From the IMG/VR virus record IMGVR_UViG_2671180268_000009: a stretch of DNA of 4,385 bases; one strand, written 5' to 3'. Under the pieces are notes generated by a model, which saw only the letters and a program-made list of their open reading frames with translations, had not been told where the DNA came from and searched no databases. The stretch's first letter is position 1; every line of letters begins with the position of its first letter. Both the position numbers and the translations under genes were made by a program. Of this stretch, positions 1 through 4,385 are shown piece after piece. The DNA comes from a virus (lineage: Duplodnaviria; Heunggongvirae; Uroviricota; Caudoviricetes).

Positions 1-79
1 GCTTTGAACTCTTTAGAGTAACGTTGGGTTTTTCTGCTCATTATTAGCTCCTTCTGATGCCATTCTATTTCAGGAAGGA

Positions 80-782
80 GTGTCCGTTAAACTCAGGCTA
101 CCTCAGGTTATTCGCTTCTGGGCATGGGCGGATCAACAAATGATAGACGGTAATGCAGATTGTAACGCTCGCGGCGTTACAAAAAGTGCAATAGATCGCA
201 TCACTTTTATGTCTGGTTTTGCTGATGCGTTAATTCAGGTTGGATGGCTGGTCGAAAATGACGGAGGGCTTTCTCTACCTAACTTTGAACGTCATAACGG
301 AAAAAGCTCTAAAAAAAACGGGCGGTTACAAACGAGCGAGTAACAAAAATACGCGAACTGAAACGAAAAGGTAACGCTGCCAGCGTTACACAAACGGATC
401 AAAAAGCGTTACCAGAGGAAGAGGAAGAGGAAGATCTAAATACTGATCTCCCCCTCGCCAAAAACGAGCGTCTAAAAAATTCGAGCCGGAGGCTATTGAG
501 CTGCCCGATTGGTTGCCGGAAACACTCTGGCATGAGTGGGTCCGGTTCAGACAGGCATTGCGAAAACCGATTCGAACGGAGCAGGGCGCTAACGGGGCGA
601 TACGGGAACTGGAAAAATTCCGTCAGCAGGGTTTTACACCTGAGCAGGTGATTCGACACAGCATCGCCAATGAATACCAGGGCCTGTTCGCGCCGAAAGG
701 TGTTCGGCCTGAGACGTTGCTCCGACAGGTTAACACCGTCTCGTTGCCGGACAGTGCGATCCCGCCAGGCTTCAGGGGGTAA
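80..782 (+). pseudogene. Phage replication-initiation/primosomal protein with DnaT-like C-terminal domain (YdaU-like); frame broken by two apparent -1 frameshifts
   Basis: Three consecutive open segments in different frames: frame 2 from GTG 80 to TAA 341-343; frame 1 open 313-648, reading through a (GAGGAA)x3 acidic stretch; frame 0 open from 447 to TAA 780-782. The frame-0 segment ends ...NTVSLPDSAIPPGFRG, which closely matches the C-terminus of E. coli DnaT as I recall it (...NTVSEPDSQIPPGFRG), and ELPDWLPETLWHEW resembles the DnaT PDWQPD region. The frame switches fall at an A8 run (311-318) and an A6 run (474-479). Adding one A to each run gives one continuous ORF of about 235 aa. GGAAGGAG at 72-79 abuts GTG 80 with no spacer, so the true start is uncertain (in-frame ATG at 140 is an alternative). 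Stops occur in all three frames within 1-50, so the gene does not extend upstream of the window. Confidence 0.6.
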
Positions 783-788
783 CGGACC

Positions 789-1219
789 ATGAAAAATATT
801 GCGACAGGCGGCGTTCTGGAACGCATCCGCCGACTGACCCCGCCACATGTAACCGCCCCATTCAGAACGGTAGCGGAGTGGCGCGAGTGGCAACTTGCTG
901 AAGGCCAGAAACGTAGCGAGGAGATCAACCGCCTGAATCGCCAGTTGCGGGTGGAAAAAATTCTGAATCGCTCAGGCATCCAGCCGTTGCACCGTAAATG
1001 CTCGTTTGCGAATTACCAGGTGCAGAACGACGGCCAGCGATACGCGTTAAGCCAGGCGAAATCCATCGCCGATGAACTGATGACCGGGTGTACAAATTTT
1101 GCGTTCAGCGGAAAACCTGGTACCGGGAAGAATCACTTAGCGGCAGCTATCGGGAATCGCCTGCTGAAAGACGGTCAGACAGTGATTGTGGTTACCGTGG
1201 CTGATGTTATGAGCGCCCT
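789..1219 (+). CDS. DnaC-like replicative-helicase loader (phage YdaV/P-like AAA+ ATPase), 3' end lost in assembly gap
   Basis: ATG 789 follows a GGGGG SD-like tract at 775-779 and sits 6 nt after the upstream stop. The translation MKNIATGG...RSGIQPLHRKCSFANYQV...FAFSGKPGTGKNHLAAAIGNRLL...VVTVADVMSA parallels E. coli DnaC as recalled (MKNVGDLM...RSGIRPLHQNCSFENYRV...FIFSGKPGTGKNHLAAAICNELL...IITVADIMSA), including the Walker A motif GKPGTGKN. The ORF runs into N at 1220; the residues the ORF track reports after the gap are a read-through artefact. Confidence 0.85.
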
Positions 1220-2320: not shown

Positions 2321-3007
2321 ATGACCCCAATAAACATATTTATGACAGTTGCTGATTTCAAACGGCCCAAATTGGAGCTCCCAAACGGGGCAAACAAACT
2401 ACTACTGCACTCTTGCTGTGCTCCATGTTCCGGTGAGGTGATGGAGGCGCTTCAGGCCTCGGGAATCGACTACACCATCTTTTTCTACAACCCGAACATT
2501 CATCCTCAGAAAGAGTATTTAATTCGTAAGGATGAGAATATTCGCTTTGCTGAACAACACGGCGTGCCGTTTATTGATGCTGATTACGACACAGACAACT
2601 GGTTTGAACGAGCCAAAGGAATGGAATGGGAGCCCGAACGAGGGATCCGTTGCACCATGTGTTTTGACATGCGTTTTGAGCGGACAGCGCTGTACGCCGC
2701 TGAAAATGGTTTCAGTGTGATCAGCAGTTCACTGGGCATTTCACGCTGGAAAAATATGCAGCAGGTTAACGACTGTGGGCGGCGAGCCGTCGCGCATTAT
2801 CCGGGCATGGTGTACTGGGATTATAACTGGCGCAAGCAGGGCGGCTCGTCCCGTATGATTGAAATCAGCAAGCGCGAAAAATTCTATCAGCAGGAATATT
2901 GTGGCTGTGTGTATTCTCTGCGCGATACCAATCTACACCGCAAATCTCAGGGACGCCCTCTTATCAAAATTGGTCAACTCCACTACGGTAAAGAAGAGAA
3001 GGAGTGA
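2321..3007 (+). CDS. queH: QueH-like epoxyqueuosine reductase (DUF208 family) carried as prophage cargo
   Basis: 228-codon ORF ending at TGA 3005-3007. The N-terminal motif [15 protein letters not shown] matches the conserved LLLHxCCAPCS signature I recall for DUF208/QueH, with further Cys pairs (RCTMCFD, YCGCVYS) consistent with an Fe-S/metal enzyme. Start is ambiguous between ATG 2321 and ATG 2342. Confidence 0.65.
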
Positions 3008-3156: not shown

Positions 3157-3449
3157 NNNNNNNNNNNNNNNNNNNNNNNNNNNNNNNNNNNNNNNNNNNN
3201 NNNNNNNNNNNNNNNNNNNNNNNNNNNNNNNNNNNNNNNNNNNNNNNNNNNNNNNNNNNNNNNNNNNNNNNNNNNNNNNNNNNNNNNNNNNNNNNNNNNN
3301 NNNNNNNNNNNNNNNNNNNNNNNNNNNNNNNNNNNNNNNNNNNNNNNNNNNNNNNNNNNNNNNNNNNNNNNNNNNNNNNNNNNNNNNNNNNNNNNNNNNN
3401 NNNNNNNNNNNNNNNNNNNNNNNNNNNNNNNNNNNNNNNNNNNNNNNNN
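3157..3449. other. Masked/unknown sequence (293 N)
   Basis: Uninterrupted n run at 3157-3449. The non-round length suggests a sized gap or masked segment; its content cannot be read. Confidence 0.98.
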
Positions 3450-3971: not shown

Positions 3972-4325
3972 ATGGCACATATACAACTGGTCAAACAAAC
4001 CTCTTCCGGATTACTTCTCCCGGCGACGCCGGAGAGTTGCGATTTTCTGCATCAAATCAAAATAGGTGAGTGGATACACGCAGACTTTAAGCGTGTGTGT
4101 AACTACGCATTCCACAAGCGTTTTTTCAAACTCCTGCAACTGGGTTTCGATTACTGGACTCCGGTCGGTGGGGCGATCACGCCTCGCGAACGAAAACTGG
4201 TGTCCGGTTTCGTTGATTACCTGTGTGAATCAGTAGGCCGGGAACATACGCCAGCTCTGAGCGAAGCCGCAGAGCAATTGAGGTGTACTGGCAATAGCGG
4301 ACACTACCATTTGTTCTTTTTTTAA
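3972..4325 (+). CDS. Conserved lambdoid-phage nin-region protein (DUF1367-like, tentative)
   Basis: ATG 3972 has GGAG at 3961-3964 with a 7-nt spacer; the ORF runs to TAA 4323-4325. The translation MAHIQLVKQTSSGLLLPATPESCDFLHQIKIGEWIHADFKRVCNYAFHKRFFKLLQLGFDYWTPVGG resembles a phage family I recall from the region between replication genes and Q. The ORF ends inside a T7 run (4317-4323) with odd terminal residues (HYHLFFF), so the 3' end may be unreliable. Confidence 0.55.
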   Translation: MAHIQLVKQTSSGLLLPATPESCDFLHQIKIGEWIHADFKRVCNYAFHKRFFKLLQLGFDYWTPVGGAITPRERKLVSGFVDYLCESVGREHTPALSEAAEQLRCTGNSGHYHLFFF

Positions 4326-4385
4326 GCAGCCATCTGATGATATTTTTCCCTGAAGGCTGCCGGGGAGATATTCCCCAGACGAGAG

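Follow-up and report, generated by a model that had tools for sequence, protein, structure and literature searches.

Three lesions in a YdaU-type replication initiator gene of a Rac-like prophage remnant of Shigella sonnei: very probably a lineage-fixed pseudogene

A prophage replication gene whose reading frame breaks twice within a few hundred bases raises the question of whether the breaks were introduced during sequencing and assembly, whether they are translated through by some form of recoding, or whether the gene has been lost. The stretch of DNA that was analysed, referred to here as the window, is 4385 bases long, and three-frame translation shows that the reading frame of its first gene can be followed only as 2, then 1, then 0 (3). 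The first-pass annotation of this DNA favored homopolymer under-calling in a draft assembly as the explanation, and left the function of the prophage replication module to depend on the answer. Comparison with intact orthologues very probably points elsewhere, to a genuine, lineage-fixed pseudogene of a YdaU-type initiator that carries three independent lesions and belongs to the defective remnant of a Rac-like prophage in Shigella sonnei.

The window comes from a Rac-like lambdoid prophage and has the gene order ydaU, ydaV (DnaC-like), DUF977, a small hypothetical gene, queH, the hok region, rem, and DUF1367. With its N-runs set aside, it is 100% identical to three assemblies (loci L004, L005, and L016); the last of these, CP010829.1, is listed as Shigella sonnei FORC_011 (PMC5447701). 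Both N-runs are scaffold placeholders, and their lengths are not true. In the first (1220–1320), 101 N stand in place of 314 bp of ydaV as read in complete genomes, where ydaV is intact and encodes 248 aa; in the second (3157–3449), 293 N stand in place of 287 bp, and the hok region is mostly hidden there. A full-length queH gene (epoxyqueuosine reductase, Pfam QueH) at 2321–3007 forms prophage cargo between the replication genes and hok, and is also kept in intact E. coli prophages. An antisense ORF of 164 aa at 399–893 was dismissed, since the strand opposite to it is a conserved coding region and nothing independent speaks for it. The features that bound and fill the region of interest are:

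1–105, minus strand: left end of an IS600 element (IS3 family), with its terminal inverted repeat at 80–105
41–39, minus strand: ATG start of IS600 orfA (MSRKTQRYSKEFK...), reading out of the window
106–782, plus strand: 3' part of a YdaU-type phage replication initiator gene, very probably a pseudogene, corresponding to nt 105–789 of the intact 789-nt gene
789–1219, plus strand: 5' part of ydaV (DnaC-like helicase loader), which runs into an N-run in the window
4279–4385, minus strand: right terminus (IRR) of another IS600 copy, oriented like the first, with the DUF1367 gene truncated

One of the lesions had been overlooked. Positions 1–105 of the window are 99–100% identical to sequences annotated as 'IS3-like element IS600 family transposase', which occur in up to 43 copies per genome. 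In an alignment to intact orthologues, gene homology in the window begins at 106, equivalent to nt 105 in intact copies, and the preceding 104 nt are missing (34 full codons and 2 bases of codon 35). These first 104 nt were found on the far side of IS600 in complete S. sonnei genomes, in which the 1264-bp element lies between ...GGGAAGGT and GGTTATTCGC...; in locus L004 the element, also 1264 bp, is accompanied by a 3-bp target duplication, GGT, at gene nt 105–107. Its assignment to IS600 rests on the presence of both IRL and IRR, a length of about 1.26 kb, the GGT duplication, and the 100-aa HTH_Tnp_1 and 272-aa rve genes. The GTG at 80, which had been taken as the start of the replication gene, sits within the terminal inverted repeat of IS600 (80–105) and had to be abandoned as such. 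The IS600 truncation suffices alone to inactivate the initiator gene. Since the second IS600 truncates DUF1367, the window is the stretch between two IS600 copies.

Downstream of the insertion, two smaller lesions account for the changes of frame. The first-pass annotation was right that there are two such changes (2 to 1 to 0) and that both are real; the first was located as claimed, and the second was misplaced. The relevant sites, with a repeat array that lies between them, are:

311–318, plus strand: A8 run, first frame break (2 to 1); A6 in intact orthologues, that is, +2
414–431, plus strand: array of three AGAGGA hexamers, in frame, encoding a Glu run; no lesion
449–455, plus strand: 10-bp deletion junction, where the second frame break (1 to 0) really lies, with one TCCCCCT copy kept
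474–479, plus strand: A6 run, unchanged relative to intact orthologues; no lesion there

Stop codons confine the first frame change to 313–340, and the A8 run at 311–318 is its site. The proposed one-base under-call did not hold at this run, which is two bases longer than the A6 of intact genes; the frame change is therefore due to two extra A's and not to one missing base. Intact E. coli genes and phage 666R9 carry A6 here, and all S. sonnei-type loci as well as locus L019 carry A8; an A9 allele, found in the IS-free relative L014, is in frame and adds one lysine. Among 132 complete E. coli genomes that matched the A-run region, none had A8. The existence of A6, A8, and A9 alleles indicates that the homopolymer is mutable, and A8 might be derived from A9.

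Stop codons would allow the second frame change anywhere within 447–648. It had been assigned to the A6 run at 474–479, but this run is A6 in 20 of 20 loci, whether the gene is intact or broken, and the real lesion lies about 20 nt upstream. At the corresponding site intact genes have TCCCCCTAAATCCCCCT, reading GATC-TCCCCCTAAA-TCCCCCT-CGCC, and the window at 445–459 reads GATC-TCCCCCT-CGCC. The 10 bp that have been deleted, TCCCCCTAAA, are associated with two 7-bp direct repeats, TCCCCCT, between which the deletion falls, and the loss amounts to one 7-bp repeat copy plus the spacer. A 10-bp deletion placed between direct repeats in this way is a classic footprint of slipped-strand (replication slippage) events. 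The same deletion is shared by the IS-free relatives L014 (A9) and L019 (A8). A 71-nt query for counting deleted alleles in E. coli was non-diagnostic, because BLAST joins the two pieces across the direct repeat; among the matches listed for it, all span 81 bases and are thus undeleted. The best full-length E. coli match, which was used instead, has 98.8% identity and carries both differences.

The AGAGGA array between the two breaks is present in 2, 3, 4, 6, or 7 copies depending on the genome, with 3, 6, or 7 in S. sonnei-type assemblies. The draft scaffold L018 shows an implausibly long array adjoining N-runs, which is probably a gap-filling artefact.

Intact relatives of the gene allow its product to be assigned to a family. 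A search with window positions 1–1219 found 680 complete E. coli genomes in which 80% or more of the query was matched. In the top-ranked complete genomes ydaU is annotated as one uninterrupted CDS, and the intact orthologues in complete E. coli genomes form a single CDS of 260–262 codons. To repair the S. sonnei allele in silico, the IS was taken out together with one GGT copy, two A's were removed, and the lost 10 bp were put back. The resulting ORF of 789 nt encodes 262 aa, with 100% identity to the intact E. coli protein of locus L002. The repaired protein also closely resembles the orthologues found in Escherichia phage vB_EcoS-666R9, where it is annotated as 'DNA replication protein O', and in a Rac-type phage. 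These phage copies share about 93% identity at the DNA level, pass through both sites without a change of frame, and keep SSKKRAVTNE and LPLNPPRQKRASK across the two break sites.

Against PHROGs, the intact protein matched phrog_2509, 'replication initiation protein', over residues 1–262 (profile positions 1–277 of 277, E 1.2e-89), and the window copy, which lacks the uninterrupted ORF of this family, is filed as a family pseudogene. The gene occupies the position of an initiator, directly upstream of ydaV (DnaC-like) and downstream of the immunity genes, and the order of cI-like repressor, cro-like gene, ydaT, ydaU, and ydaV is the same as in other Rac-like lambdoid prophages with a YdaU-type initiator (phrog_2509), a family labeled 'phage replication initiator YdaU family protein' in RefSeq. 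Compared with intact YdaU-type initiators, the window copy is broken by IS600, by the +2 A expansion, and by the 10-bp deletion. A Pfam profile search with the intact protein and both window fragments returned no family at E ≤ 0.01, DUF1376 included. The NCBIfam DnaT equivalog NF002770 scored 16.2 bits against a cut-off of 201 bits, over the last 19 residues only. In a comparison with PDB, residues 170–262 matched the C-terminal domain of DnaT (2ru8_A, E 9.5e-5), and relative to E. coli DnaT (PDB 2ru8, 9zbt) the last ~20 residues are nearly identical (VNTVS.PDS.IPPGFRG). The earlier label 'DnaT-like' is therefore apt for the C-terminal ~90 residues, but not for the N-terminal 170, which have no similarity to DnaT. 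Relative to the K-12 Rac YdaU (DUF1376), the C-terminal 124 residues alone align, at 81% identity, and the N-terminal half is unrelated. The description that fits the protein best is a YdaU-type initiator with an N-terminal domain of its own and a DnaT-like domain at the C-terminus; gene order and family annotation suggest that the protein probably works with the downstream DnaC-like YdaV.

The same initiator gene has been disrupted independently in an unrelated 5.3-Mb genome (locus L015, around position 5985), where a +1 G frameshift changes GAGCCGGA to GAGCCGGGA; this genome has the A6 run and does not have the 10-bp deletion.

Whether the breaks could be sequencing or assembly errors, with homopolymers mis-called in a draft and the gene intact in the living cell, was judged from their recurrence. 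There is reason to ask, since the window is a draft scaffold with two N-runs of untrue length, one break does sit at a homopolymer, and the in-frame A9 of L014 means that A8 could in principle be an under-called A9. However, the second break is a 10-bp deletion with no homopolymer change, the A6 run being equal to the intact state, and in 13 of 13 fetched assemblies with this IS600 junction the A8, the 10-bp deletion, and the A6 were all identical. Among these 13 separately assembled genomes are several 4.8-Mb single contigs, the FORC_011 chromosome in finished form, and many drafts made independently, and it is not plausible that an error common to all of them produced a 10-bp deletion or an IS junction. 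The exact 87-aa product of 80–343, which arises only from the IS junction together with A8 and so marks both lesions, is indexed in 481 blocks of a public collection, 14 of which have contigs larger than 1 Mb. In 397 of the 481 blocks the longest contig with this product is 2–5 kb, in keeping with the look of the window, that of a typical IS-bounded S. sonnei short-read scaffold. Even if both indels were erroneous, the IS600 insertion with its target duplication would still break the gene. It is thus very unlikely that the breaks are errors. Under-calling, which was the preferred explanation of the first-pass annotation, does not fit a 10-bp deletion and a +2 change that both recur in 13 assemblies; true pseudogenisation in a decaying prophage, which it had listed as an alternative, is borne out by the same lesions and IS600 junction in all 13. 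Relatives with the same interrupted structure, which it had named as the observation that would speak against under-calling, are precisely what was found. A frame break next to a homopolymer in a draft had been put down to faulty base calling, which the comparison with intact orthologues did not bear out; this is a caution for similar cases.

Two further readings were considered, both very improbable. Recoding, either by two −1 ribosomal frameshifts (at 313–319 and 474–480) or by transcriptional slippage on A8, would yield a near-full-length protein. Runs of eight or more A's are prone to RNA-polymerase slippage, and the slippery-heptamer form noted earlier at both runs is correct, with X_XXY_YYZ in register at 313–319 (A_AAA_AAC) and 474–480 (A_AAA_AAT). 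Such shapes are, however, not enriched: region 80–782 has five against 2.9 ± 1.9 in shuffles, 403 of 2000 of which had at least five, so there is no excess over chance in this region, and the whole window has 23. Nested (pseudoknot-free) RNA folding downstream of the two heptamers gave unremarkable z-scores of −1.1 and −1.6, like shuffles, and the window had no Rfam match at gathering thresholds. A double slip would produce a protein that is unlike the intact one at two places, with a residue added at the first site (KKNRAV where the intact protein has KKRAV) and LAKNERLKN in place of LNPPRQKRASKK at the second, and still without the N-terminal 35 residues. The start, ribosome-binding site, and promoter have been lost to IS600, and the sole in-frame start is the GTG in the IS inverted repeat, which abuts AAGGAG without a spacer. 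Programmed −1 frameshifting at A_AAA_AAG in dnaX and in IS3-family transposases uses the same formal heptamer on an A-run; in contrast to those systems, the layout in the window is not conserved in orthologues, shows no stimulatory element in the nested folds, and has C or T rather than G as the Z base. Against programmed slippage, both sites are read in one frame in the intact E. coli and phage orthologues, which have A6 and lack the deletion; the two-frame layout is therefore neither ancestral nor conserved, and recoding has only the slightest probability. In the other reading, the A-run and the hexamer array would constitute a contingency (phase-variable) switch for the initiator, as might be thought from the A6, A8, and A9 alleles and the 2–7 AGAGGA copies seen across genomes. 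The A8 is, however, common to all S. sonnei-type loci, hexamer changes are in frame and cannot switch the gene, and slippage can reverse neither the 10-bp deletion nor the IS600 insertion, which makes a switch exceedingly improbable too.

In four draft S. sonnei scaffolds (L008, L011, L012, and L013), the 87-aa ORF is preceded by an IS600 whose far side connects to a different Rac-type prophage, which has a K-12-type ydaU (DUF1376, 285 aa) and a truncated ydaV; in large contigs, the IS600 connects to the 5' fragment of ydaU. The deviant joins are likely due to scaffolding across collapsed IS600 repeats or to IS-mediated rearrangement.

A further feature of this ydaU allele is a perfect 19-bp palindrome, GTAACGC-N5-GCGTTAC, which occurs three times at a spacing of about 200 bp in and just before the gene:

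162–180 and 371–389 of the window: two copies inside ydaU
3366–3384 of locus L002: one copy, 14 nt upstream of the ydaU ATG

Two or more copies were found in none of 200 shuffles, and the palindrome is absent from the K-12-type ydaU in L008. In S. sonnei, IS600 parts the first copy from the other two. In phage lambda, the origin lies inside the initiator gene O. The palindrome could be an initiator binding site, as an iteron or origin inside the initiator gene, or else an operator, and is the sole item here that might merit a later look. A residual activity of the locus can also be imagined, in which transcriptional or ribosomal slippage on A8 lets S. sonnei make a truncated DnaT-like C-terminal fragment, or in which the palindromes serve as a cryptic origin active in trans. 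If so, a fragment started at the IS600-borne GTG or at an internal start would still contact intact YdaV or the host primosome; this is a very improbable scenario.

A genuine pseudogene, fixed in the lineage, remains by far the best explanation, with three independent mutations that inactivate the gene. A 10-bp deletion arose between the 7-bp direct repeats, as is usual for replication slippage. Slippage in the poly-A run expanded A6 to A8, or may alternatively have passed through the in-frame A9 followed by the loss of one base. IS600 transposed into codons 35/36, leaving the 3-bp GGT target duplication and cutting off the promoter, the ribosome-binding site, and the first 34 full codons (104 nt) from the remaining gene. 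The order given here is suggested by the IS-free loci L019 (A8) and L014 (A9), both of which have the deletion: we infer that the 10-bp deletion, as the most widely shared lesion, probably came first, followed by the change in the A-run, with IS600 last. The decay is recent, as not a single amino-acid substitution separates the repaired protein from the intact one of E. coli. We also infer that no functional initiator is made; the recency of the decay, and fragments that may still be expressed, count against the pseudogene reading.

Decay is not confined to the initiator gene. The upstream neighbor ydaT has a 1-bp deletion in S. sonnei that lies outside any homopolymer (TTAGCC to TTGCC, around position 4195 of locus L004), and its called product is 101 aa as opposed to 140 aa, making it a second pseudogene of the same module. 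Together with the DUF1367 gene cut by the second IS600, this deletion suggests that the whole element is decaying. An integrase fragment follows directly after the second IS600, and lysis and structural genes are absent between them.

IS-mediated and indel pseudogenisation is part of Shigella genome reduction. The features seen here, including a multi-copy IS600 with a 3-bp duplication, indels in neighboring genes, and IS-bounded short-read contigs, are shared with that process, from which the present case does not differ in kind; it is one more instance. Prophage remnants of S. sonnei have been discussed previously (PMC5447701). With an initiator gene hit three times in an IS600-bounded remnant, the question of whether this prophage replication module is functional can be answered: it very probably is not. 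The loss of its initiator is ordinary Shigella gene decay, an event of an already well-known kind.
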